Part shown: piece after piece, positions 647 to 60,712 of the stretch
How positions within the stretch are numbered: position 1 is the first letter of the stretch
Layout: every line of letters starts with the position of its first letter
Made by a program: the position numbers and the translations under genes
Notes under the pieces: generated by a model
Databases searched by the model: none
Seen by the model: only the letters and a program-made list of their open reading frames with translations
Told to the model about the DNA's origin: nothing
Assembly: GCA_024685175.1 (NCBI GenBank)
Contig: JAIKWD010000033.1
Location: 48,123 to 112,122, forward strand
Source of the DNA: Bacteroidales bacterium
GTDB lineage: Bacteria > Bacteroidota > Bacteroidia > Bacteroidales > WCHB1-69
Direction: 5' to 3'
Length of the DNA: 64,000 nucleotides

Positions 647-2524
647 TTATTTTTCCAATTTGTTATTATCTATCAGCCAGCGCATTACAGCTACGACATC
701 ATCCTCGTCGAATTTTTGGGCCAACTGGGACAAGATATTTTTTTCGGAAAAACCTTGTTTTTTCAGTTCAACAATTTGTTTTGAGACCAGTGAGAAGGTA
801 TCTTCGGGTAATACTTGTTTTTGATTTTTGCGACAGACATCACATTGTCCGCAGGGCTCGCTTTTTGTCTCGCCAAAATAGGCCAACAGTTGTTGGCTGC
901 GACAACGATCCGTAGAGGTAGCATACATTTCCACCGCTTTTGTCCTCTCTTCCGCCTTCATCTTACGATTGGCGTATACGGCGGGTTCGAAATAGATATG
1001 ATTATCGGGAATTCTGTCCTTCAAGAAGACTATGAGCGGAATCTGGCTTTGAGGCTGATAGGAAAGGACCTGAGCTTTTCTCAAGGTATGCAACAATTCC
1101 ACCACCTCTTCTTCTTTCATGCCGGCGCGAGTCGCGAGGAGGTCTTCGTTAATGTTAACATATTGGGTAAATACGCCGCCGTACGATCGCAGAAGCAATT
1201 TGACAAACTCTTCCCATTCAGGATGTTTCTCTTCAAAATCGAGCAATGCATCCCCATTCATCAGAAAGTGTATTTGAGAATTCTCGCGCAAGTGTTCCGA
1301 CATCACAATCATGCCGGCCTTGGCCAAGAAATCCATCGCATTGAAAAGCTGTACGGGATCCATCTTCATCCTTCGGGCATGTTGTTCAAGATAGAAGGGT
1401 TGAATCATGTTTTTGCCCGTCCCCATCTCAATTCTATAAAACTGGCAAAGGTCGTCATATACCTCACGCACCTTTTCCAAGGGTGGAAAAGACAGGGTGA
1501 GATTGCGGTGAAGCTGCCGAATATCGTTGCCTTCATAGAGCAAGATGGCGACAGCGGGTTGTCCATCCCGTCCGCCGCGCCCAGCCTCTTGGAAGTACGC
1601 CTCCAGGGAGTCCGGCAAGTCCAGGTGAACGACAAAACGGACACACGGATTATCAATGCCCATACCAAAAGCATTCGTGGCCACGATGACACGAGTCTGG
1701 CCGATCATCCATCCATTCTGACGGGCGTCGCGCTCCTTGGGATCAAGTCCGGCGTGGTAGCACTCGGCCGTAATCCCGTTTTTTCGAAGAAATACGGCCA
1801 CCTCAGCGGTCTTGCGTCGGTTGCGCACATACACGATACCCGTACCTGGAAAGCGTTGCAGGATACGGAGCAACCGGCCGTACTTGTCCTCTTCCTTAAC
1901 CACAAAATAGGTAAGATTCTCCCTTTTGAAACTCTTTTGAAAGACATTCTCCTCCTTAAAGCCCAATCTCACCTGAATATCCTTGACCACTTCAGGGGTG
2001 GCGGTGGCCGTCAGGGCCAACACCGGCGCTTGGGGGAACACCTTGCGAATTTCGGCTATTTGCAGATATGGTGGACGGAAATCGTAGCCCCACTGCGAGA
2101 TACAGTGCGCCTCATCCACGGCAATCATCTTGACAGGCATCTTCTCCAAATTAACCCGAAACAGATCGGTCTGCAGCCTTTCCGGAGAGACATACAAGAA
2201 GCGATAATCCGGATCAAACATGGCATTATGTATCGCATCTTCGATCTCACTTCGGCGCATGCCTGAGTAAATAGCGGCCGCTTTGATGCCTCTTTCCTTG
2301 AGATGGGCCACCTGGTCCTTCATCAACGCAATAAGGGGGGAGACCACTATGCCAAGTCCCTGCAATGCCATGACGGGCACTTGGAAACAGATGGACTTTC
2401 CCCCTCCCGTGGGCAACAACGCAAGCGTATCTCGCCCATCCAATACCGAACGGATAATATCCTCCTGCATCGGACGAAAGTTGTCGTAGCCCCAGTATTG
2501 CTTTAGGATTTGGTGAATGTCCAT
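647..2524 (-). CDS. recQ: RecQ-family ATP-dependent DNA helicase (no HRDC domain)
   Basis: LPTGGGKS, VDEAHCISQWGYDFRP, QEAGRGGRDG, C-terminal Zn motif CRSQQLLAYFGE...CGQCDVC. Confidence 0.93.
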   Translation of the reverse strand: MDIHQILKQYWGYDNFRPMQEDIIRSVLDGRDTLALLPTGGGKSICFQVPVMALQGLGIVVSPLIALMKDQVAHLKERGIKAAAIYSGMRRSEIEDAIHNAMFDPDYRFLYVSPERLQTDLFRVNLEKMPVKMIAVDEAHCISQWGYDFRPPYLQIAEIRKVFPQAPVLALTATATPEVVKDIQVRLGFKEENVFQKSFKRENLTYFVVKEEDKYGRLLRILQRFPGTGIVYVRNRRKTAEVAVFLRKNGITAECYHAGLDPKERDARQNGWMIGQTRVIVATNAFGMGIDNPCVRFVVHLDLPDSLEAYFQEAGRGGRDGQPAVAILLYEGNDIRQLHRNLTLSFPPLEKVREVYDDLCQFYRIEMGTGKNMIQPFYLEQHARRMKMDPVQLFNAMDFLAKAGMIVMSEHLRENSQIHFLMNGDALLDFEEKHPEWEEFVKLLLRSYGGVFTQYVNINEDLLATRAGMKEEEVVELLHTLRKAQVLSYQPQSQIPLIVFLKDRIPDNHIYFEPAVYANRKMKAEERTKAVEMYATSTDRCRSQQLLAYFGETKSEPCGQCDVCRKNQKQVLPEDTFSLVSKQIVELKKQGFSEKNILSQLAQKFDEDDVVAVMRWLIDNNKLEK

Positions 2525-2537
2525 GGGAGAATTAAAA

Positions 2538-2587
2538 AATCAGGAATGAGGAATGAAAGAAGGGGTTCATTGGTTCATCGGTTCATT
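2538..2587. repeat. intergenic microrepeat tracts: heptamer (AAT[C/G]AGG) plus octamer GGTTCAT[T/C] x3
   Basis: aatcaggaatgaggaatgaaa...ggttcattggttcatcggttcatt. Confidence 0.75.
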
Positions 2588-3329
2588 GTACAGCGAACAG
2601 CTTGTAATTCGCGAGGTGCCATTTCTGGAGACGGTATTGCATAGCAGTGTGCAGAACGCCAAAGCCGTAACGAACACTTCGACCAAAATTAATGGACGAA
2701 GCCTCGGGAAAGTATTTCGTGGGGCAGGTGATTTCGGCGATTTCATAACCTGCGTAGAAGATTTGGGCCAACATTTGATTGTCGAAGACAAAATCGTCGG
2801 AGTTGGCCATGAAATTGATTTTTCTCAGCACCTCAGCGGAGAAGGCGCGATAGCCGGTATGATACTCGGACAACTTTTGGCCCATGATGATATTCTGCAC
2901 CAAAGTAAGACCTCTGTTGAAGAAATACTTGTAACGTGGCATTCCACCTTTGCGTGCTCCACGGCCCAAAATTCTTGAGCCGAGCACCACCGGATAGACA
3001 CCATTCACTATCACATATACCATGGATTCAATAAGTTTCGGAGTGTATTGATAATCAGGGTGCAGCATCACCACCACGTCGGCGCCCAAAGAGAGAGCCG
3101 TCTGGTAGCAGGTCTTCTGGTTGGCTCCGTAGCCTTTGTTACGATCATGGCTTACAATATGGCTGATTCCCAACGATTTCGCTACGGAAAGAGTACCATC
3201 GGACGAGTTGTCGTCCACCAAGATGACGTCATCTACAATATCGAGTGGGATCTCGTTATATGTTTGTCTCAGCGTCATGGCCGCATTATAGGCAGGCAAC
3301 ACCACACATATTCTCTTATCTTTTACCAT
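2583..3329 (-). CDS. glycosyltransferase family 2 (DPM1-like)
   Basis: VVLPAYNAA, LVDDNSSDGT, GYGANQK, HPDYQY, HTGYRAF motifs. Confidence 0.9.
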   Translation of the reverse strand: MVKDKRICVVLPAYNAAMTLRQTYNEIPLDIVDDVILVDDNSSDGTLSVAKSLGISHIVSHDRNKGYGANQKTCYQTALSLGADVVVMLHPDYQYTPKLIESMVYVIVNGVYPVVLGSRILGRGARKGGMPRYKYFFNRGLTLVQNIIMGQKLSEYHTGYRAFSAEVLRKINFMANSDDFVFDNQMLAQIFYAGYEIAEITCPTKYFPEASSINFGRSVRYGFGVLHTAMQYRLQKWHLANYKLFAVQ

Positions 3330-3351
3330 TCTTGCGCTATTTTTGAAAGCG

Positions 3352-3403
3352 CAAAAATACTAAAATATCGTGCTACTATACATTCCTTTTTTTAGTATTT
3401 TTG
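3352..3403. promoter_or_regulatory. divergent pair of -7 promoter boxes (3352-3359 minus; 3396-3403 plus)
   Basis: CAAAAATA and TATTTTTG between divergent genes. Confidence 0.65.
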
Positions 3404-3429
3404 CCGTTTTAAAGTCACAGCACGTGTCT

Positions 3430-5103
3430 ATGAATTGCAAACATATAACGGCTTTCCTAGCTCTCATGATCATCCTGGGGGCATGTGCCAAGGTTGTGGC
3501 ACCTACGGGTGGTCCTAAAGACACCACCCCACCCAAGGTATTGAAAGAAGTTCCTGTCAACGGCAGTGTCCGGTTGAAGGAGCCGGTCGTCAAGGTCACC
3601 TTCGACGAATATTTCACCCTGAACAACCCAACCGACAACGTGCTCATCTCCCCTCCCCTGCAAGAGCAACCTCATTTCAACGTCAACGGGAAGACAATGG
3701 TCATCAAGTTCAAGGAGGAGTTACGCCCCAATACCACTTATAACTTGGTGTTTTCCAATTGCATACAGGACTATCACGAGAGCAACAAACTCAGTTATTA
3801 CCATTATAGTTTCTCGACGGGAGATATCATCGACACCTTTATGTTGGCCGGAAAAGTCAATATGGCGGGCACTTTGGAGCCGGGCGAGGACTTGTTTGTC
3901 TTCCTTTACGACCAAGATGTGGACTCGTTGCCTATGACCACACGTCCCACCTACCTGACCAAGACGCAGAAAGACGGCTCCTTCGCCTTTCACAATGTCC
4001 AGCCGGGCGACTATAAAGTTTTTGCACTGAAGGATTTGAATGCCAACTTATTGTACGACCTACCTGACGAGTCTGTGGCTTTTGTCAGCGGCACTGTGGC
4101 CTCTTATCCTGAGCCCAAGCGGGACACCACCGCCAAACGGGATGCCACAACGACAACCGCCTTACCGAAACTTGACTTGTTCGCTTTCGTGGCACCTGCG
4201 GCCGAACCGACACTACTGCGATATGAGAATCCGGCTGTCGGCATCTACAAGTTCCCCTACAAGTCAGCCGTCGAGCAATTCACTGCTACGCCGCTTGAAC
4301 GAGACGTGCCGCATTTCCAGACGATCAACAAGTCGATGGATACCATCACCTGGTACTTGAAGGAAACATTGAATGACACCCTCGAGTACGCTTTTATAGC
4401 TGATGGGCACTCCGACACCGTGAGGATCAGCCCATTCAAGGCGAAAAAGGGACCAGCCCCTCGCGGCGGAGCCAGAAACACGAATGCGCCCTCGTTAGCA
4501 ATCTCCGTACTCAATCAAGGCCATCGCTTCAAGCCTATAACTTTGGCATTCAGTTATCCCGCGATGCCCACCGATTCCATCGACATACTCTTCATCTCCC
4601 ATCACAAGAGCGACACCGACACGGTAGTTTGCCGCACGGCCGTCCCCGACAGTTTGGTCACGAGATTGCCCTTGACAGTCCAATTGGAAGACAAAAAGAA
4701 TTACACGATGATCATCCCTGATTCCGTGTTCCAAGGATACAACGGCGGTTACAACGACTCCATCAAGTCCACCTTCACCCAGAAGACCCAAAAAGATTAT
4801 GGATCCTTGATTATGGAATACTCGATGGAAAAGGCCAAATGTCAATATATCATACAGTTATGGAATGGTGCCACGATGATACAGGAAGACATTCTGACCA
4901 AGACCGCCACTATATCCTATCTTGGCTTGGACCCGGGCGGTTACAGTATCCGGGCCATTGAAGACCGCAACAACAACGGGCGTTGGGATGCCGGCGATTA
5001 TCGGACCGGCCTGCAGCCCGAGCGTATCATCTCCTACCCTAGTGTCATCAACATACGGGCTTTTTGGGAGAACGAAGAGAGTTTTAACCTTACGGAAGAA
5101 TAG
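3430..5103 (+). CDS. lipoprotein with Ig-like (Big_5) domain, conserved in Bacteroidota
   Basis: lipobox LGAC followed by AKVVAPTGGPKDTTPP, FDEYF and EDRNNNGRWD; start moved to ATG 3430, downstream of the promoter box. Confidence 0.85.
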   Translation: MNCKHITAFLALMIILGACAKVVAPTGGPKDTTPPKVLKEVPVNGSVRLKEPVVKVTFDEYFTLNNPTDNVLISPPLQEQPHFNVNGKTMVIKFKEELRPNTTYNLVFSNCIQDYHESNKLSYYHYSFSTGDIIDTFMLAGKVNMAGTLEPGEDLFVFLYDQDVDSLPMTTRPTYLTKTQKDGSFAFHNVQPGDYKVFALKDLNANLLYDLPDESVAFVSGTVASYPEPKRDTTAKRDATTTTALPKLDLFAFVAPAAEPTLLRYENPAVGIYKFPYKSAVEQFTATPLERDVPHFQTINKSMDTITWYLKETLNDTLEYAFIADGHSDTVRISPFKAKKGPAPRGGARNTNAPSLAISVLNQGHRFKPITLAFSYPAMPTDSIDILFISHHKSDTDTVVCRTAVPDSLVTRLPLTVQLEDKKNYTMIIPDSVFQGYNGGYNDSIKSTFTQKTQKDYGSLIMEYSMEKAKCQYIIQLWNGATMIQEDILTKTATISYLGLDPGGYSIRAIEDRNNNGRWDAGDYRTGLQPERIISYPSVINIRAFWENEESFNLTEE

Positions 5104-5124
5104 ATTTCCAAGACCGCCTATACT

Positions 5125-8100
5125 ATGTATAACAACAAGACTATCAACAAGATGCTAGAGAAGGCAGCGATGATGGTCTTCGTGCTGTTCGCGTGGATCG
5201 GGAGTGGGTACGGGCAGATGCGCACGGACACGAATGTGTACGTCACACTTTGTCAAGGTGCTCCGTCTTACACTTTTCCGAGCGTCGATTTCTTCCAGGG
5301 GCGGACGTTCAACGCCAGCGGGCTATACACGGACACGTTACGTGGGGGTGCGGTCGGCGGCGCCGACAGTATTATGCGGTTATACTTGACCATCATCGAG
5401 AATCCTGAGGTCACCATACTCTCCGACCCTGCCGGCCCCAACTATTGCGCAGGCATTCCGGTGACGCTGACCGCCGCGAGCAATTTCAGCAATGACGTTT
5501 TGTTGCAGGAAGATTTTGATTGTTTGGCAGAGGTCTGCGACACCTGTGACGACCAATGCAACGCTTATTACGAAACATATAATGGATTGGGTTGTAATGG
5601 TTTAGCGCCAGGCGGTACGAATTATGAGTTATCGCAAAGCAATTACGCCACCATTCTTCCAAATTTTCCGACTAGAGTTAATGCATACCCTGCGGGCGAT
5701 GCAATCAAAATAGGCAAAATAGCAAAAATTGGAAGTATCACCTCCACCCCTTTGGATTTAAGTCAACCTTTCGGGGTGACCATTCGAGCAAAGGGTTGGG
5801 GAACGTATCCGGGTAAAATCATCGTCAGCGTGGATGGCGGGCACGAGCAGGCGTTTGTCACCACCAATGACGAATGGCCAGGCACCTATAGGGACACCAC
5901 GCTCTACTTTGCCGCCGCCACGGTTTCTTCAACCATTACCATCCGCACGGATACAATCATTATGGGGACGGGAGCCACGGATATCACGGGGTATCGGGCA
6001 CTCATCGACGAAATACGGATTTCGAGGATGTGTCATTACCAATGGAGCACACCAAACAACGATGCCACGTCCGCCATCACGTTCACGCCCACACAGGATT
6101 CAACGTACAGCGTAACCGTTACTGGTGACAACGGGTGCAGAGGATCGACCAGCCACCCTATCCACATCGTCCATTCAACGGGCACGGTGGACGAGGTGAC
6201 TACCGTAGGTAGTTACATCTGGCACGGGCGAGTGTACACATCACCCGGGGAGTATTATTATGCAAATGTGGGAGCCAACGGCTGCGAAAGTGTGGACACC
6301 TTGCGACTAACCTTAGAAGAGGTTGACTTGTGCAACAGTTGGCAAATCGTGACCAGCACCAACGACTTGCAGGTTGGCGACAGGATAATCATTGCGGCCT
6401 GCGACGATGACTTGGCTCTTGGGGAACAAAACGGCAATTTCAGGGACACAGTGCCAATCATCAAATCAGCAGACCATTCCACCATTGAATCCATCGGTAA
6501 TGCCACCATACTCACTGTGGTTCAGACAAGTCCAAACTACCTTCTGTTAGCTGAAAATGGCTATCTCTTTTACCCTGGATCCAACAACTACTTAAATGAA
6601 GGCGAAATCACATCGAACAGCTATTGGGATATCACTTTTAACGGAGGCACTGCTTATATAAGAAACATCAGTTATCCAAACTTCTCTATCCAATACAATT
6701 CAAGCGCTCCTCGTTTTTCTTGTTACTCAAGTGTTCAAAAGAAAATCTCCATCTACAAACTTGGAATTGCCCATAGTGATATTTCCATCACAAATTGTGG
6801 TCCCATCACATTTTCAGGACAAACCTATTCCTCAACCGGAGACTATGAAATTGTTCTGGACAATGCGTCTACTGACGGTTGCGACAGTATCGTCCACTTG
6901 CACTTGACCATTTTGCCGATACCTACCTTGAGTGTTTCTCCCGAAAAAGACACCGTTTGTTCCGGGGAGAGCATCACCCTGAATGCCACAAGTGATTGTA
7001 TGGCAGGAGAATTTGCCTATACGGAAGGGTTTGCTGCCCTTACAACAGGCAATAGCACAAGCACGAGTGATTCAAGAATCCCTGTTCCCCCTATTTTTTA
7101 TCAAACTTCTCAACTATTTGCAAATGGCAATGCCGCTTATCAAGCCGGAGGGGCAGTTAAACTAGCATCAAGAGACTCAATAGGGTATCTTACGACAGAA
7201 CCATTAGATCTCTCTACCGATTTCACCATCAAAATATGGGCAAAAAAATGGAATGCTGGTGAAGGTGAATTTTCAGTCACCGTGGACAACACCCTACTCT
7301 GGTCGAGGATGCCAGATTCAGAAACTAATTTCGTCGAACACACGCATAATTTTGCAGCAGCGACTACATCATCAATCATCACAATCGCTGCTGAAAACAA
7401 AAGAAGAGTCTTCATCGATTCAGTGGCCATTGTCGGCAGTTCGGAATGTGCGTATGTCTGGAGGAGAGGTGCGGACACCTTGTCGCAAGTAAACAGTGTC
7501 GTCGTCACACCGGAGTCGAGTGGTTGGTATCACGCCTCAGTCACGGACCAAAACGGTTGCTCAAGCGAAGACAGTGTGGAGATTATCGTGCCGAGGGGAA
7601 TCAGCGACACGGCTACGGCCTGCAATTGGTACGAGTGGCTCGGAGACACCTACACCGAGAGCGGAACGTACTACCACCCCTACACCGACGCCAACGGATG
7701 CAACCAGGTAGACACATTGCACCTGACCGTCAACCGGCCGTTCGCCGTTGACACCTTCGCCACCGCCTGCGGTTCGTTCACATGGCTCGGAACTGAGTAC
7801 ACTGCGACACCCGACGTTGCACCCACCTTCACCACTACTGCCGCCAACGGATGCGATAGCGTCGTGGCCCTGCACCTGACCGTCAACCGGCCGTTCGCCG
7901 TCGACACCTTCGCCACCGCCTGCGGCTCCTTCACCTGGCACGGGAACGAGTACACAGAGACACCCGACGTCGCACCCACCTTCACCACTACTGCCGCCAA
8001 CGGATGCGATTCCGTCGTGACCTTGCACCTGACCGTCAACCGGCCGTCCGCCGTCGACACCTTCGCCACCGCCTGCGGCTCGTTCATCTGGCACGGGACC

Positions 8101-52404: not shown

Positions 52405-53595
52405 ATGGCCAACGATACTAAAAAAGGCGACATAAAGGAGAGATTCCTCCGCATTCTCAAGATTGCCTGGCGAAAAGTCAAGGAATACACCCGAATCAAA
52501 GAGGATACGGACTACGAAGCCACCGTTGACTCCATCTCCGGGAGCGTGGAGTTCAAGGGATTCAACGTATGGATCCTATTCTTCGCCATCATCGTGGCTT
52601 CTGTCGGACTCAATGTCAATTCCACAGCCGTCATCATCGGCGCCATGTTGATTTCTCCGTTGATGGGGCCTATCAATGGTATCGGTTTGGCTATCGGCAT
52701 CTCCGATGAAAAGCTGCTCCAAAAGTCACTCAAGAATCTGGCCATTATGGTAGGCATCAGTTTGGTGGCCTCCACACTGTATTTCCTGTTGTCGCCCATC
52801 AACGACGCACGTTCGGAGTTGTTGGCGCGTACGCAGCCCACCATCTTTGACGTGTTCATCGGCTTTTTCGGAGGGTTGGCAGGTATTGTGGCCACCTCTC
52901 GCAAGTCGCAGTCCGTCACCGTCATCTCAGGCGTGGCCATTGCCACAGCCCTCATGCCGCCATTGTGCACCGCAGGTTTCGGCATCGCAACAGGTCAGAT
53001 ATGGTACTTTCTCGGCGCTTTCTACCTCTTCTTCATCAACTCCTTCTTCATCGCGCTGGCCACCTTTATCACCGTTCGGCTGCTCGGATTCCCGCAAGTC
53101 CGATATGTCGATGAAGCCCAATCCCGAAAGGTGAAACGTATAACCACCATCTTCACCATTATCGTATTGGTACCCAGCATATTCCTAGCCGCGGATGTAA
53201 TCAAGGAGGCCGCCTTCAACACCCAGACCATCAAGTTCGTCAACGACATCCAAGAAAGCGAGATGTTCAAAGATACTCAACTGCTCAAGGCCGACCGCGA
53301 GTACCACCACCGAAGCCAAAATGTCACCCTCACGCTCATAGGCAAGCCGCTGGACCAAACACAAGTATTCCAACTCCAAGAACTTCTCAACAAAGAATAC
53401 GGCCAAAAAACCGCCAACCTCATCGTCAAGCAGTCCTCCGGAGCCAGCATTGATGTAAAACAACAAAACGAAGTCATTGAAAACCTCATAGACAAAAAGG
53501 ACGAGACCATCCGTCAACAGGATTCCATCATCCATGAGTTACAACGTCAATTGCAAGAGGTGAAAAGCAAAGAAGGAACTGAAAAAAATAACTGA
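52405..53595 (+). CDS. DUF389 (TIGR00341) membrane protein
   Basis: NSTAVIIGAMLISPLMGPI, ELLART.P, GVAIATALMPPLC. Confidence 0.9.
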   Translation: MANDTKKGDIKERFLRILKIAWRKVKEYTRIKEDTDYEATVDSISGSVEFKGFNVWILFFAIIVASVGLNVNSTAVIIGAMLISPLMGPINGIGLAIGISDEKLLQKSLKNLAIMVGISLVASTLYFLLSPINDARSELLARTQPTIFDVFIGFFGGLAGIVATSRKSQSVTVISGVAIATALMPPLCTAGFGIATGQIWYFLGAFYLFFINSFFIALATFITVRLLGFPQVRYVDEAQSRKVKRITTIFTIIVLVPSIFLAADVIKEAAFNTQTIKFVNDIQESEMFKDTQLLKADREYHHRSQNVTLTLIGKPLDQTQVFQLQELLNKEYGQKTANLIVKQSSGASIDVKQQNEVIENLIDKKDETIRQQDSIIHELQRQLQEVKSKEGTEKNN

Positions 53596-53603
53596 AATTT
53601 ATA

Positions 53604-54074
53604 ATGATTAAGTCTCGAATTCTGGTTTTATTGCTGATTTTAGCAGGTTATCTTTCCTGTACGGCGCAGACGAATGTAGAAATACATTTTCGTGATGCTG
53701 GCAGCCAGACATTCACTGTTGATAATACTGGGAAACTCTATTTTGACAATGGCTATCTCATTGTCGATGAGGGTCATGCAGTTCCTGTTTCCTTTGCCAT
53801 CCCCGACATCCAGAAAATCTTATTCTCCTCACCCACAGACATTAACGACATCTCCGCACAGGGGTGCCGCATCTACCCTAACCCCGCTTCATCATTCATC
53901 AAGATAGAAAACGAAACCGGGATCGAATCATTCTACCAACTCTTTGCCTTAGACGGCCGCCTGTTAATGTCTGGAAAATGTTCCAACAACGAATCTATAA
54001 CCATCAGCGATTTACCGCAAGGCTTATACTTGCTTAGAATAAACAGTCAAACCTTCAAAATCAGCAAATTATGA
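53604..54074 (+). CDS. small T9SS type A CTD protein (156 aa)
   Basis: signal ..CTA-Q; ~55-aa beta-rich N-domain; IYPNPASS..DGRLL..LPQGLYLLRINSQTFKISKL. Confidence 0.85.
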   Translation: MIKSRILVLLLILAGYLSCTAQTNVEIHFRDAGSQTFTVDNTGKLYFDNGYLIVDEGHAVPVSFAIPDIQKILFSSPTDINDISAQGCRIYPNPASSFIKIENETGIESFYQLFALDGRLLMSGKCSNNESITISDLPQGLYLLRINSQTFKISKL

Positions 54075-56257
54075 AAAAGATGATGCTTTTCTTGATGGTT
54101 TTGGCTTTCACGCTTCCCATCAAGGCCCAAGAGATTTTACATTTATACAACAATGGTTCTGTGATTTTCGAGAAATCCACCGAAGACATTGACAGCATTT
54201 ATTTTCGTAGCACTAACTCCTTGTTCTCTTTTGACAACGACTTGATGACCTTTTCCACCTCAACCATCGACAGTATCACTTTCAGTCAAGACAGCCTCAT
54301 TGAGCCTAACGAGGAGATTCGCATCATCTGGGATGGCGATAATGTCACCATCATCAACCCCATGGCCAATCAGGGTGTTTCCATATCCAACAATGGCGGA
54401 AAGGTAACCGTAACCTCGACAGCCAATGTCCAAGATCTTGTCTATCATCTCTCCGGAAGTACTTCCAACGGCTATTTGTATTTTACCCCGAACAAAAGAT
54501 TCACCCTATCCTTGGATGGCGTGTCCATCACCAACCCTTCTGGTCCGGCTATCGATATTTTAGTCGACAAGGCGGTCTCCATCACGACGAAGAGCGGCAC
54601 ACAGAACTACCTGAACGACGGCAGCAACAATTCCAAGAAAGCCACTTTGCAGAGTAAAGGACAGATCATTTTCCACGGCACCGGCACCTTGACACTTAAC
54701 GGTAACGTCCGCAACGCCATCCATAGCGATGACTTTGTCGTGATGAACAGTGGCAATGTAGCGGTTGCTTCAGCCGTAGCCGATGGCATCCACTGCGACT
54801 ATTTCATCATGAACGGTGGGCATCTCACCGTAACCTCCTCGGGAGATGGTATAGACGGTGATTCTGGTTACATCACTATCAACGATGGCACACTATCGGT
54901 CAACACTTCGGGAGCCAATGGCAAAGGTCTCAAGTGCGACAGCACCTTGATGATCAATGGTGGTGACGTCGAAGTTGTCCATAGCGGCAACCAAAGCAAA
55001 GGGATTAAGAGCGCCCAAGCCATTTTCATCCATGGGGGCACGCTGGGGGTCACCTCATCCGGGACCACCGTGTTGGAGAGCACCGACACGGGCAACGACC
55101 CTTCCTACTGTTCTGCCATCTCGTGCAATGGTGTAGTACACATTACTGGCGGTGACATCACCATCAACCTCCCGACCAGCAATGCTGGAGGACGTGGCAT
55201 CAGCGCCGACGACACCGTTAGCGTAACGGGCGGCACGCTTCACATTGAGACTCATGGCAATGGAGCCGTTTACACTGTCAGCGGCAACACTAAGGATTCA
55301 TACACCTCAGCTTGTATCAAGAGCGACGTCTGCGTGAAACTTACGGGCGGCGACATCTCATGCACCAGTACGGGAACTGGAGGCAAGGGCATCAACAGCA
55401 AGGGCAGCGTTATCATCGGCGATGTCGGTGCATCTGACTCCGACGTCGTTGTCAACATAACCACTTCCGGCGCACACATCACCGTGTCATCAGGAGGCGG
55501 CTGGTGGGGCGGAGGCGAAGGCGAATATGCCAATCCTAAAGGCATCAAAGCCGATGGCGAGCTAACCATCAATGGGGGAACCGTCACCGTCAACTGCACA
55601 CAAACCACCGATGGCGGTGAATGTCTCTCCAGCGCAGGTCATATCAACATCCATGGAGGGCAGGTCAGCACCATTTCCGCATACGACGACGCCATCCAGA
55701 GCAGCACACGCATCAACATTACGGGGGGCACCATCTACGCCGGCTCCAATCATAACGATGGCATTGACTGCAACGGGCGAATATATATCAGCGGTGGTTT
55801 CATCATAGCCTCGGCCACCACCACACCCGAAGAATCCTTTGACACCAACGACTCTATTTTTTCCATAACAGGCGGCACGATGATCGGCACCGCGCCTAAC
55901 GGAATGTTCACGAATCCAACAGCCAGCGCTTGTACCCAACACTCTCTCAAATACACGGGCAGCAGCAACAATGCCGTGCAGATCATCCGCAACAGCGACA
56001 ACACTGTGATCCTCACCTTCAAAATCCCATCCCTCAGTGGCGGCGGTGGCGGTCCCGGCGGTTGGGGCGGCAGCAGCAATGCCGCTTTATTCTTCAGCAG
56101 CCCTGAACTCATTCAAGGTTCCTATACCCTCAAATACGGCGGCACCATCAACGGCGGCACCGACTTTCACAACTATTATACAGGAGCCACATACTCCGGA
56201 GGCAGCAATAAATCTTTCACGGTTGGTTCTGGCTATTCCATAACAACAGTACAATAA
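54071..56257 (+). CDS. secreted beta-helix carbohydrate-binding protein (DUF4353/Cthe_2159-like), no CTD
   Basis: signal ..IKA-Q; LDGVSITN..GPAI, GTGTLTL, repeated I.GG.......DGI / KGIK coils. Confidence 0.82.
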   Translation: MKKMMLFLMVLAFTLPIKAQEILHLYNNGSVIFEKSTEDIDSIYFRSTNSLFSFDNDLMTFSTSTIDSITFSQDSLIEPNEEIRIIWDGDNVTIINPMANQGVSISNNGGKVTVTSTANVQDLVYHLSGSTSNGYLYFTPNKRFTLSLDGVSITNPSGPAIDILVDKAVSITTKSGTQNYLNDGSNNSKKATLQSKGQIIFHGTGTLTLNGNVRNAIHSDDFVVMNSGNVAVASAVADGIHCDYFIMNGGHLTVTSSGDGIDGDSGYITINDGTLSVNTSGANGKGLKCDSTLMINGGDVEVVHSGNQSKGIKSAQAIFIHGGTLGVTSSGTTVLESTDTGNDPSYCSAISCNGVVHITGGDITINLPTSNAGGRGISADDTVSVTGGTLHIETHGNGAVYTVSGNTKDSYTSACIKSDVCVKLTGGDISCTSTGTGGKGINSKGSVIIGDVGASDSDVVVNITTSGAHITVSSGGGWWGGGEGEYANPKGIKADGELTINGGTVTVNCTQTTDGGECLSSAGHINIHGGQVSTISAYDDAIQSSTRINITGGTIYAGSNHNDGIDCNGRIYISGGFIIASATTTPEESFDTNDSIFSITGGTMIGTAPNGMFTNPTASACTQHSLKYTGSSNNAVQIIRNSDNTVILTFKIPSLSGGGGGPGGWGGSSNAALFFSSPELIQGSYTLKYGGTINGGTDFHNYYTGATYSGGSNKSFTVGSGYSITTVQ

Positions 56258-58615: not shown

Positions 58616-60712
58616 ATGAAACGTCTTGCCCTTATCTTAGCTGCTTTACTGTTCCTTCTTATGTCGGGACAGGCACAGCAACATCTCACACTTGACCTAT
58701 GTCAAGGAGAGGTTTTCTATTGGCCAGGCCACAACAACGGACAACCTTATAATACGGGAGGTACTTTCATTGATGGCAATGACACGTTAACCATCCACAT
58801 GCACCAACCCTATCACAAGCATATCGAAGGAGTCGTTTGCCAATACGGTACTTACACCGACCATGGGTTCTTTTTTGACGAATCGCAAACTTCAACCATT
58901 GGTATTATCGAGGACTCCCTTGTCTTAAACACCGTTTATTATTGTGACAGCGTTATTCATCTTACCCTTACCGTGCGGCCATTACCTAATGTCCACGCCT
59001 CATCCGACACGGTCATCTTCGGCAATTCCGCCACATTGAACCTACAAGTTAATGGTACAGCGCAGTATTATGTTTGGGAGCTCAATAATGGTATCACTCA
59101 GGCCAACTGCAACAACACCACTCAACGTGTTACTGTCAACCATTCCACCGAATATATTGTAACCGGCTATGTAGAAGGTAATGACCTAGTTAATAACGGC
59201 CATTTCACTTTAGGGAACACGGGATTCACCAGCAGCTACATAGGTCACAACACACCCGGCTCACAAGCTTTATGGGATGAGGGCACCTATGCTGTAGGCA
59301 CCGATGCCAGCAACTGGCACGAAAACTTCCGAGGAGCTCATGACCACACCACCGGCAATGGCAACTATATGATTATTAACGGAGCAACAGGTAGCAATAC
59401 AGTGGTTTGGTCTCAATCTATTGATATAGAACCCTATACTTATTACGTTTTCAACACATGGGTAACCACAGTATGCGCTGAACCATGGGCTCAGCTGCAG
59501 TTCAGTATCAATGGCGGAGTTATCGGAAACATCTTTAGCGCCCCTAACAACTACAGTGCTAATAACCAATGGCTCAATTTCTACAATCTTTGGTATAACA
59601 ACTCTCCAGCACGTACCGCCACAATATCCATTGTAAACCAAAACATCACTGCAAGTGGCAACGATTTCGGATTGGACGATATTTCCTTCTGCAAGCTCAC
59701 TGGATGTGGCGTGACAGACACCATACAGATTCTTTTCAACACCAATCTTGACACCACAATCTGTCGAAACAGCCTACCATTGGTGTGGAATGGCTGCACT
59801 TTTACTGCGGAGAACTACGAGACGCCTCAGTTTACCAGAATTCATCGGGAGGAAATGTTGGATAGCGCTATTACCATGCGCGTACACCTATTCCCAACCG
59901 TTCAAACCCCAGTTCTTGAAAACATTCACGAGGATGAACTACCTCACACCTATAACAATTTCGTATTCTACGAAGCCGTAACCGACTCTATCCTTGTTTT
60001 GACGGATCAAAACGGATGCGATAGCCTTATATCGTACACTTTGGAAATCCGCCACAATACATACGAGAACGATGCTGCTACCATCTGCGAGAATTATGCT
60101 CCATACCTGTGGCATGGCATGCGATTATACCATACAGGAACCTACACCGATACCATTTTCAACAACATCGTTGGCGACACTATTTACACCCTTAACCTTA
60201 CCGTCATCGACACCATGTTGAATATTACCAACCTCACCGACAATTTCTGCGATGAAATGTCAGCCATCCTTTCCGTCACTTCCGCCTTTGAAAACTTCGT
60301 CTGGAGCAATGGCGAGACCTCATCCCAAATTACGGTGTTGAATCCTGGAACCTACTCGGTTACCGCCACCTCCGATCACTGCGAAATAACCCGTTCCTAC
60401 AACATACCTCCCTGCCAACTTAATATTCTCCTACCTAACGCCATCACGCCGAGCAACGCCGACGGACACAATGATTATTTTTACATAGACGAATCACAGC
60501 AACGGCTGATCCAGGATTTTGAAATCTACATTTACAATCGTTGGGGCAACTTGGTGTTTTATTCCAAAGAGAAAGATTTTCGTTGGAACAATTTAGAGGA
60601 GAATGTTACTCTAGACGAAATGTATCGGCAGAGTGTATATTCCTACCTGATCAAGTGCACCGACTTAAGAGGTACGCACCACGCATATAAAGGAAGTATA
60701 GTCGTTTTATAG
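58616..60712 (+). CDS. T9SS type B CTD surface protein with a CBM-like domain
   Basis: signal ..GQA-Q; DHTTGNGNYMIING..GNDFGLDDISF; CDS repeats; LPNAITP..DGHNDYF..IYNRWG..KGSIVVL. Confidence 0.85.
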   Translation: MKRLALILAALLFLLMSGQAQQHLTLDLCQGEVFYWPGHNNGQPYNTGGTFIDGNDTLTIHMHQPYHKHIEGVVCQYGTYTDHGFFFDESQTSTIGIIEDSLVLNTVYYCDSVIHLTLTVRPLPNVHASSDTVIFGNSATLNLQVNGTAQYYVWELNNGITQANCNNTTQRVTVNHSTEYIVTGYVEGNDLVNNGHFTLGNTGFTSSYIGHNTPGSQALWDEGTYAVGTDASNWHENFRGAHDHTTGNGNYMIINGATGSNTVVWSQSIDIEPYTYYVFNTWVTTVCAEPWAQLQFSINGGVIGNIFSAPNNYSANNQWLNFYNLWYNNSPARTATISIVNQNITASGNDFGLDDISFCKLTGCGVTDTIQILFNTNLDTTICRNSLPLVWNGCTFTAENYETPQFTRIHREEMLDSAITMRVHLFPTVQTPVLENIHEDELPHTYNNFVFYEAVTDSILVLTDQNGCDSLISYTLEIRHNTYENDAATICENYAPYLWHGMRLYHTGTYTDTIFNNIVGDTIYTLNLTVIDTMLNITNLTDNFCDEMSAILSVTSAFENFVWSNGETSSQITVLNPGTYSVTATSDHCEITRSYNIPPCQLNILLPNAITPSNADGHNDYFYIDESQQRLIQDFEIYIYNRWGNLVFYSKEKDFRWNNLEENVTLDEMYRQSVYSYLIKCTDLRGTHHAYKGSIVVL

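Follow-up and report, generated by a model that had tools for sequence, protein, structure and literature searches.

The 64,000-nt stretch of Bacteroidales DNA analysed here (hereafter, the window) carries two overlapping genes on its forward (+) strand, at 53604..54074 and 54071..56257, whose products we take, with a little more confidence than doubt, to be the two parts of a split type IX secretion system (T9SS) substrate. The product of the first gene (156 aa; the carrier) ends in a T9SS C-terminal sorting domain (CTD), and that of the second (728 aa; the cargo) is a Cthe_2159-family protein with no CTD. Both begin, behind the signal peptide, with homologous N-terminal domains of ~55 aa (N-doms), and the N-dom of the cargo would act as a portable tag in place of a CTD in cis. 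Pairs of this kind, with varied passengers, make up a larger family to which the pair in the window belongs. The comparative evidence, which includes the domain architecture of the two proteins, the profile-level homology of their N-doms, the adjacency and co-occurrence of their genes, the lack of CTDs in N-dom proteins and their occurrence in the upstream partners, and a complete T9SS core in this genome, is strong and points to a two-part substrate. In full-text searches of the literature, we found no paper on a T9SS CTD supplied in trans and nothing linking Cthe_2159 proteins to the T9SS.

The carrier consists of a putative signal peptide (53604..53666, residues 1-21), an N-dom (53667..53831, residues 22-76), and a type A CTD (53859..54071, residues 86-156), and no other family was matched. 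Residues 90-155 match both PF18962 (2e-11, 44.5 bits; cut-off 27) and TIGR04183 (3.4e-12, 46.2 bits; cut-off 23). In an AlphaFold2 (AF2) model based on an alignment of 47 orthologues (mean predicted local distance difference test score [pLDDT], 86), a signal helix is followed by six short strands (residues 23-74), a short linker, and a beta-sandwich (residues 81-155); the strands of the predicted N-dom span residues 23-29, 34-39, 44-48, 51-55, 62-65, and 69-74 (pLDDT 85-94). The sandwich (residues 86-156) superposes on the translocon-bound CTDs of NucA (8glk_D; VIA Z 10.8, rmsd 1.5, 69 residues aligned) and FspA (8glj_D, Z 10.3), and also on the CTD of mirolase (8qb1, Z 9.6). The carrier belongs, by both sequence and fold, to the class of type A CTD substrates. 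The n-region, the h-region, and the inferred cleavage site A21/Q22 of the signal peptide (MIKSRILVLL...) were read from the sequence by eye and are kept in the orthologues, among the 47 of which A21 is nearly invariant and Q22 invariant. A Cys at residue 19 made the carrier a candidate lipoprotein, which was rejected because the conservation seen at A21 and Q22 does not extend to this Cys. The TGA stop codon of the carrier (54072-54074) shares bases with the ATG of the cargo (54071-54073), resulting in a 4-nt ATGA overlap.

The cargo is composed of a signal peptide (54071..54127, residues 1-19), an N-dom (54128..54292, residues 20-74), a Cthe_2159-family body that forms a right-handed beta-helix (54317..56041, residues 83-657), and, after a poly-Gly linker, a C-terminal beta segment that forms a cap (56075..56254, residues 669-728). 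The family assignment is based on PF14262, which matches in four stretches (9.3e-57, 192.7 bits; cut-off 25.8), and on Foldseek searches with the cargo model (pLDDT 89.3; predicted template modelling score, 0.84), in which the body matched the fold of the solved family founder (4PHB, E 2.5e-7, TMt 0.79, rmsd 2.2, 26% identity; 4PEU, TMt 0.75). By analogy with the family, the cargo is a putative binder of cellulosic or pectic polysaccharide. Its N-dom, which is separated from the helix by a linker in the model, contains two IDSIxF-type units and six predicted strands (residues 22-27, 30-36, 40-46, 49-54, 57-62, and 68-72; pLDDT 73-83). The signal peptide (MKKMMLFLMV...) was read from the sequence as of Sec type, with no Cys, no lipobox, and an inferred cleavage site at A19/Q20. 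The Gln directly after the inferred cleavage site is invariant in both proteins (carrier Q22, cargo Q20) in all orthologues, which fits the N-terminal pyroglutamate that is habitual on signal peptidase I substrates in Bacteroidota.

No CTD family was detected in the whole cargo at E<=0.1 or in its last 100 aa at E<=10, and PF18962 was found in none of the best 120 cargo relatives. When the profile of 47 cargo C-termini was compared with the CTD profile of the same genome using hhalign, the probability was only 0.7%. The possibility that the C-terminal segment is a hidden CTD was rejected on the basis of the E<=10 search and the hhalign result; residues 669-728 align to the region that precedes a CTD-like tail in paralogues of the cargo. 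The cargo is thus a Cthe_2159 family member that fails the defining feature of canonical T9SS cargo, namely a CTD of its own, whether of type A, B, or C.

Profiles of the carrier and cargo N-doms (47 sequences each) align with an hhalign probability of 92.5% (E 4.9e-7) over 58 collinear columns, compared with 83% when 11 pairs were used, and six strands are present in both N-dom models. Direct cross-matches are weak: the carrier profile matches the cargo N-dom of genome G020 at 7.3e-4, and the cargo profile matches the carrier of locus L083 at 1.8e-4. A BLASTP comparison of the single pair was also weak (E 0.009), partly reflected the signal peptides, and was not taken as evidence. Each of the two N-dom profiles matches only its own open reading frame (ORF) in the genome that contains the window (G000), and the module is therefore single-copy in it. 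No Pfam (at E<=10) or NCBIfam family was found for the N-dom. Searching its profile against Protein Data Bank (PDB) sequences yielded two chance-level rows at E<=10, with no relative and no PorA among them; in the ESM Atlas, it fell into no named cluster; and a word-indexed search with the single carrier N-dom recovered its own cluster only. Fold searches with the carrier were filled by CTD matches and hardly probed the N-dom fold. An earlier note on this DNA had described the small protein as a signal peptide, a ~55-aa beta segment, and a type A CTD, overlapping by ATGA at 54071-54074 with the gene of a 728-aa partner without a CTD or a lipobox. These assignments agree with the PF18962 and TIGR04183 matches and the AF2 model, with the ORF coordinates, and with the C-terminal searches and the absence of Cys from the cargo signal; the similar N-terminal units that the note had seen in both proteins proved to be real and to span the whole N-doms.

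The arrangement of the two genes is conserved. In all 10 orthologous loci found among 40 relatives, the carrier gene is located directly upstream of a full-length cargo gene, always with the ATGA overlap, and the cargo orthologues share 54-62% identity within the genus and 36% in another family. A wider scan, for which one genome per species was used, returned 49 loci from uncultured Bacteroidales of ruminant or hindgut samples and one termite symbiont; some of these loci are in the same genomes as the 10 loci, and the two counts are not independent. In 48 of the 49 loci, across which cargo identity ranges from 35 to 63%, a small CTD gene lies directly upstream of the cargo gene, with a 4-nt overlap in 38 pairs and gaps of 3-5 nt in 10. 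At the 49th locus (L082), the match covers the cargo from residue 64 onwards, and the carrier position upstream yielded no ORF. The carrier N-dom was identified in 10 of 24 genus mates, i.e. nine with an intact cargo orthologue and genome G017, and was not found in the other 14. In G017 (contig C82, L016), both genes have decayed, the carrier by an in-frame TAG and the cargo by an internal deletion that leaves 270 aa.

The 3' half of the cargo gene (residues ~401-728) shows a distance pattern unlike that of its 5' half and of the carrier (rho 0.06-0.18 for residues 401-640), and the cargo C-termini are of several types (..TTVQ/..TSVN, ..GGGGW, ..FTAQ, and ..TSTTAH). Together, the distance patterns and the C-terminal types suggest that the evolution of the passenger has been mosaic.

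The N-dom is not confined to Cthe_2159 proteins. In an exhaustive search of 1.84 billion representatives with the cargo N-dom profile, 151 matched at E<=1e-3; in nearly every case, the domain occupies residues ~19-80 and directly follows the signal peptide. Among these, 93 are at least 200 aa long, and 53 of the 93 are Cthe_2159 proteins. The passengers of the remainder include Fib_succ_major, Lcl_C, Flg_new_2, FGE-sulfatase, Laminin_G_3, GDPD, CotH, PI-PLC-X, astacin, and NAGPA domains and more, and GH43 is also found among cargo-type passengers. PF18962 is present in only one of 46 representatives of at least 200 aa and does not figure among the families listed for the other 47, of which 25 out of 26 were covered.

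In a sample of 401 genomes covering the order, the N-dom occurs in 45 genomes, which represent 31 of 236 genera. All 55 N-dom matches outside G000 (from 44 genomes) were taken, and none of these proteins contains PF18962 (0/55). Their upstream neighbours on the same strand carry it in 43 of 52 cases, and a separate CTD profile picked the same 43. These CTD-bearing partners are mostly 150-190 aa in length, and 41 of the 43 also match the carrier N-dom profile; as a yardstick, G000 itself contains three complete CTD ORFs of <=200 aa among 56 CTD matches. A CTD-bearing partner is present upstream of 17 of the 21 Cthe_2159-type proteins and of 26 of the 34 proteins with other passengers (23 of these partners are <=200 aa; among the rest, seven lack a partner and one lies at a contig edge). 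The four other Cthe_2159-type cases are a frameshifted carrier (L098), a dockerin partner (L094), a contig edge (L099), and one with no partner (L126). At L098 (4555-5170, - strand, genome G390), the N-dom and the CTD of the carrier fall in different reading frames, through either a frameshift or an assembly error, whereas the N-dom Cthe_2159 protein encoded downstream (996 aa) is intact. Behind its signal peptide, the partner at L094 (623-1396, + strand, genome G174) has an N-dom of the carrier type (E 1.7e-14), a middle region of ~110 aa, and, where carriers have their CTD, a type I dockerin (PF00404, 5.8e-10).

Searches in the other direction gave a matching picture. The best 120 of 240 matches to the carrier N-dom profile are all 135-180 aa in length, and 119 of them contain PF18962, while the best 120 of 266 matches to the cargo profile comprise 118 PF14262 proteins and two short fragments; no fused carrier-cargo form was found among the best 120 matches of either search. 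With the carrier N-dom profile, five more small genes encoding an N-dom and a CTD were identified elsewhere in the order, in other families and outside the Cthe_2159 context. Each of the five is followed, with an overlap or within 20 nt, by a gene for a CTD-less signal-peptide protein with IDSIxF-type units: a CotH protein (508 aa), an unassigned protein of 592 aa, two Fib_succ_major proteins, and an unassigned protein of 236 aa. The cargo profile matches four of these five partners at E<0.01, and the gene of the 592-aa protein is followed by that of a SASA-esterase protein that also has one IDSIxF-type unit. FISUMP proteins bearing the same N-dom are located after carriers in other genomes, and several pairs can be present in one genome, as in G278 with its six N-dom matches.

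Outside the window, G000 contains two more CTD-only genes, each encoding 161 aa (contigs C25, ~2115-5439, and C11, ~102460-106437), located 80-90 nt upstream of genes for large signal-peptide proteins (915 and 1137 aa), one of which ends in a Fib_succ_major-like 'FGYSVRCL' motif. The N-terminal parts of these small proteins differ from the N-dom, and BLASTP aligns the small proteins to residues 80-142 of the larger protein (C11) with E values of 0.02-0.07. To judge from their sequences, these look like a second class of pairs of a small CTD protein and a tail-less protein.

Several observations weigh against a split substrate. According to two published accounts (PMC8545088, PMC11285876), all T9SS substrates verified to date have their CTD in cis. 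The homology of the N-doms is based on profile-profile scores, and the profiles of each protein miss the other one in the genome itself. In a 6-kb stretch, no carrier was found for seven of the 33 assessable proteins with other passengers and for one of the 20 Cthe_2159-type proteins. The partner of the N-dom Cthe_2159 protein in G174 ends in a type I dockerin, not in a CTD, and CTD piggy-backing therefore cannot account for that pair. The distance matrix of the carrier correlates with that of the cargo N-dom (rho 0.65), with that of cargo residues 83-200 to nearly the same degree (0.62), and hardly with that of residues 401-640 (0.08). Since the correlation falls with distance along the operon, it points to linked inheritance or mosaicism and not to specific co-evolution; the N-doms do not stand out in this mirror-tree test, which was set aside because it did not discriminate. 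Finally, complex prediction gave a weak result with no interface output, and a contact between the two N-doms was not located.

This prediction was made for the mature cargo and the mature carrier with paired 47-row alignments and three controls. The ipSAE score of the carrier-cargo pair was 0.44 (0.46, 0.44, and 0.38 in the individual runs), compared with 0.00 for the best control; at least 74% of the contacts agree between runs, and the pLDDT of the partner is at least 74. In the calibration of this score, 58 of 80 solved complexes attain the mark, as do 2 of 110 mismatched pairs (approximate counts, with our own alignments supplied), and values of <=0.60 are found in only seven of the 80 solved complexes and in both mismatched pairs that passed. 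The model thus lends weak support to physical binding between carrier and cargo. The earlier note had proposed that the small protein is an adaptor for its partner and that CTD-less proteins sharing the N-terminal motif, with varied cargo, would be encoded next to small CTD genes. The latter was found across the order (0/55 and 43/52, as given above), and this pairing pattern speaks for the adaptor, whereas the interface that it requires did not emerge from the weak prediction (ipSAE 0.44, none output).

The weak complex prediction, the N-dom proteins without an adjacent carrier, and a mirror-tree signal that linkage accounts for would all be expected if the two proteins were co-expressed and did not bind. 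The N-dom would then be a common N-terminal module that serves some separate purpose (for instance as a pro-domain or folding domain, as a tag for glycosylation or sorting, or in ligand binding), and the small CTD protein would be a minor surface protein in its own right, derived from a partial copy of the 5' end of the neighbouring gene. We consider this improbable, because the genes stay adjacent even where cargo identity is as low as 35% and with passengers of many families, and because the two genes are present and absent together without exception in the genus and have decayed together in G017. In addition, N-dom proteins almost never carry a CTD, even though the genome studied here encodes 56 CTD proteins.

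A further argument for a split substrate is provided by paralogues of the cargo. The Cthe_2159 paralogues in genus mates (~28% identity) start directly with the helix, lack both the N-dom and an upstream carrier, and end in a 65-aa CTD-like tail, which aligns with the CTD profile of their own genome with an hhalign probability of 96.9% (E 1.8e-10). One of four such tails exceeds the TIGR04183 cut-off, and three of the four match DUF6383 at 1e-4 to 8e-4, below the cut-off of that family. Comparison of these N-dom-less paralogues, which have their own tail, with the tail-less cargo indicates that Cthe_2159 passengers exist in fused and split formats. This contrast is the strongest local argument, drawn from sequence comparison, that the small gene may stand in for the absent cis signal.

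The same paralogues bear on the possibility that the carrier serves as an anchor only, being an ordinary T9SS substrate whose surface stub, once the CTD is removed and a lipid attached, captures a cargo exported by other means (vesicles, lysis, or some other exporter). A carrier processed by PorU would retain little beyond the N-dom and would be apt as a docking stub, and the dockerin-ending partner in G174 hints at anchoring rather than translocation. Extracellular enzymes without a CTD have been ascribed to vesicles in Cytophagales (PMC6247017). Against these points, the fused-format paralogues reveal the T9SS as the usual route of this passenger family, the cargo has a plain Sec signal without a lipobox and no other recognizable export feature, and the tight coupling of the genes (ATGA in 38 of 48 pairs) favours assembly in the periplasm before export. 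Overall, we regard anchoring alone as rather unlikely. For the G174 pair, an adaptor that provides the anchoring module fits better than a pure export signal.

The genome that contains the window (2.1 Mb, 98% complete) encodes the T9SS core, with scores of 2462.6 bits for SprA, 1189.3 bits for PorU, and 457.1 bits for PorV, each above its cut-off, and has 56 TIGR04183 matches above cut-off. SprA was detected in 383 of the 401 sampled genomes and in all 45 genomes with an N-dom, but this co-occurrence is uninformative because chance predicts only ~2 of the 18 SprA-negative genomes to have an N-dom. Two genes downstream of the pair, a separate T9SS substrate with a type B sorting domain is encoded in the window (58616-60712, + strand, 698 aa; CHU_C PF13585, 6.9e-15); its TIGR04131 score of 30.9 bits is just under the cut-off of 35. 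Upstream, a gene for a membrane protein of the DUF389/TIGR00341 family (52405-53595, + strand) ends 8 nt before the start of the carrier gene. Because of this spacing, the pair may be co-transcribed with the DUF389 gene in this genome; the neighbour is not conserved at orthologous loci.

For a split substrate, we infer heterodimer formation, co-export, and surface tethering. Both proteins would enter the periplasm via Sec, with their signal peptides cut before the invariant Gln. Translational coupling would supply the two in equal amounts, and they would pair through their homologous N-terminal beta domains of ~55 aa. The type A CTD of the carrier would then engage PorV and the SprA translocon, and the folded complex would cross the outer membrane; pairing in the periplasm followed by such passage would be the simplest mechanism. 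Alternatively, or in addition, PorU would remove the CTD and attach the stub to the cell surface, where it would hold the cargo by its N-terminus. The T9SS is able to carry folded passengers when a CTD is fused to them: in PMC10994853, SS-mCherry-CTD is used as a model substrate and SS-mCherry without a CTD as the control.

A different role for a minimal CTD protein is known from PorA, the smallest verified type A cargo, which acts via its CTD on PorY according to one report (PMC12152298). If the carrier, which is likewise a minimal CTD protein, signalled via its CTD to T9SS regulation, the beta-helix protein could stay in the periplasm. We consider this very improbable. Each small protein has a single partner, the passengers are diverse, and a genome contains several such pairs (six N-dom matches in G278), which is a poor fit to a global regulator. 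Judging from their family names, a carbohydrate-binding beta-helix, FISUMP adhesins, and GH43 enzymes are expected outside the cell, and searching PDB sequences with the N-dom profile revealed no likeness to PorA (two chance-level rows at E<=10).

Extended beyond the pair in the window, a split substrate would amount to a general, modular branch of the T9SS in Bacteroidales in which the CTD is provided in trans: an N-dom tag on dozens of unrelated passengers (beta-helix binders, FISUMP adhesins, CotH, GH43, and sulfatase-maturase-like enzymes) would be recognized by a cognate mini-protein that takes the folded cargo through SprA and tethers it by its N-terminus, and a dockerin would replace the CTD of the adaptor in some lineages. 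This generalization is an open contender, to which we give somewhat less credence than disbelief. T9SS models and genome-wide substrate predictions presuppose a CTD in cis. If CTDs are supplied in trans, the T9SS secretome of Bacteroidales from rumen and gut would be under-counted, as approximately one-ninth of the sampled genomes of the order have N-dom proteins, and the translocon would have to pass non-covalent complexes. Supply in trans would further account for the arrival of fibre-binding and fibre-degrading proteins at the cell surface in uncultured Bacteroidales of the rumen, and the 55-aa tag and its mini-adaptor would constitute a compact tool for surface display.

In the canonical type A route, the cargo bears its CTD in cis, PorV acts as a shuttle, SprA/Sov is the translocon, and PorU is the sortase. 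The pair described here shares with this route the bona fide type A CTD of the carrier and a genome with SprA, PorU, and PorV, and paralogues of the cargo have a CTD-like tail of their own. It differs in that the passenger and the CTD are on two polypeptides, the carrier having no passenger beyond its 55-aa domain and the CTD-less cargo having a homologous N-terminal domain. In SprB-SprF type pairs, a type B CTD is on the cargo itself and the partner is an outer-membrane beta-barrel of the PorP/SprF type. Such pairs resemble the present one in that the cognate genes are adjacent and often overlap, and in that the partner is dedicated to one T9SS-related surface protein. In the window, however, the CTD is of type A (TIGR04183) and resides on a small soluble partner of two domains, and the neighbour is a beta-helix protein; a type B CTD/PorP-SprF cognate pair was ruled out on these grounds.

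PorA of Porphyromonas gingivalis (PGN_0123) is similar to the carrier in having a minimal beta-rich N-terminal part and a CTD with no enzymatic passenger, as described in PMC12152298. It differs in its length (246 aa), its ten-strand N-terminal part, its function as a PorY ligand, and the lack of a CTD-less neighbour sharing that part. The PDB search gave no sequence match between PorA (6KJK) and the N-dom, and the fold lists, which were filled by the CTD, barely probed the N-dom.

In Tat hitchhiking, one subunit bears the twin-arginine signal on which a folded complex is exported, and its partner has no signal. The concept of a complex riding on the signal of one subunit is common to both cases, but the membrane, the machine, and the signal are different, and the step shared by the two proteins here would be passage across the outer membrane via the T9SS. 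A Tat hitchhiker pair was ruled out because both proteins have Sec-type signals without an RR motif. In cohesin-dockerin tethering, as in the present pairs, a small module on many passengers docks to an anchoring partner, and the G174 partner itself ends in a type I dockerin. In the present pairs, however, the coupling domain lies at the N-terminus and is without a family assignment, and its counterpart is a T9SS CTD stub instead of a scaffoldin.

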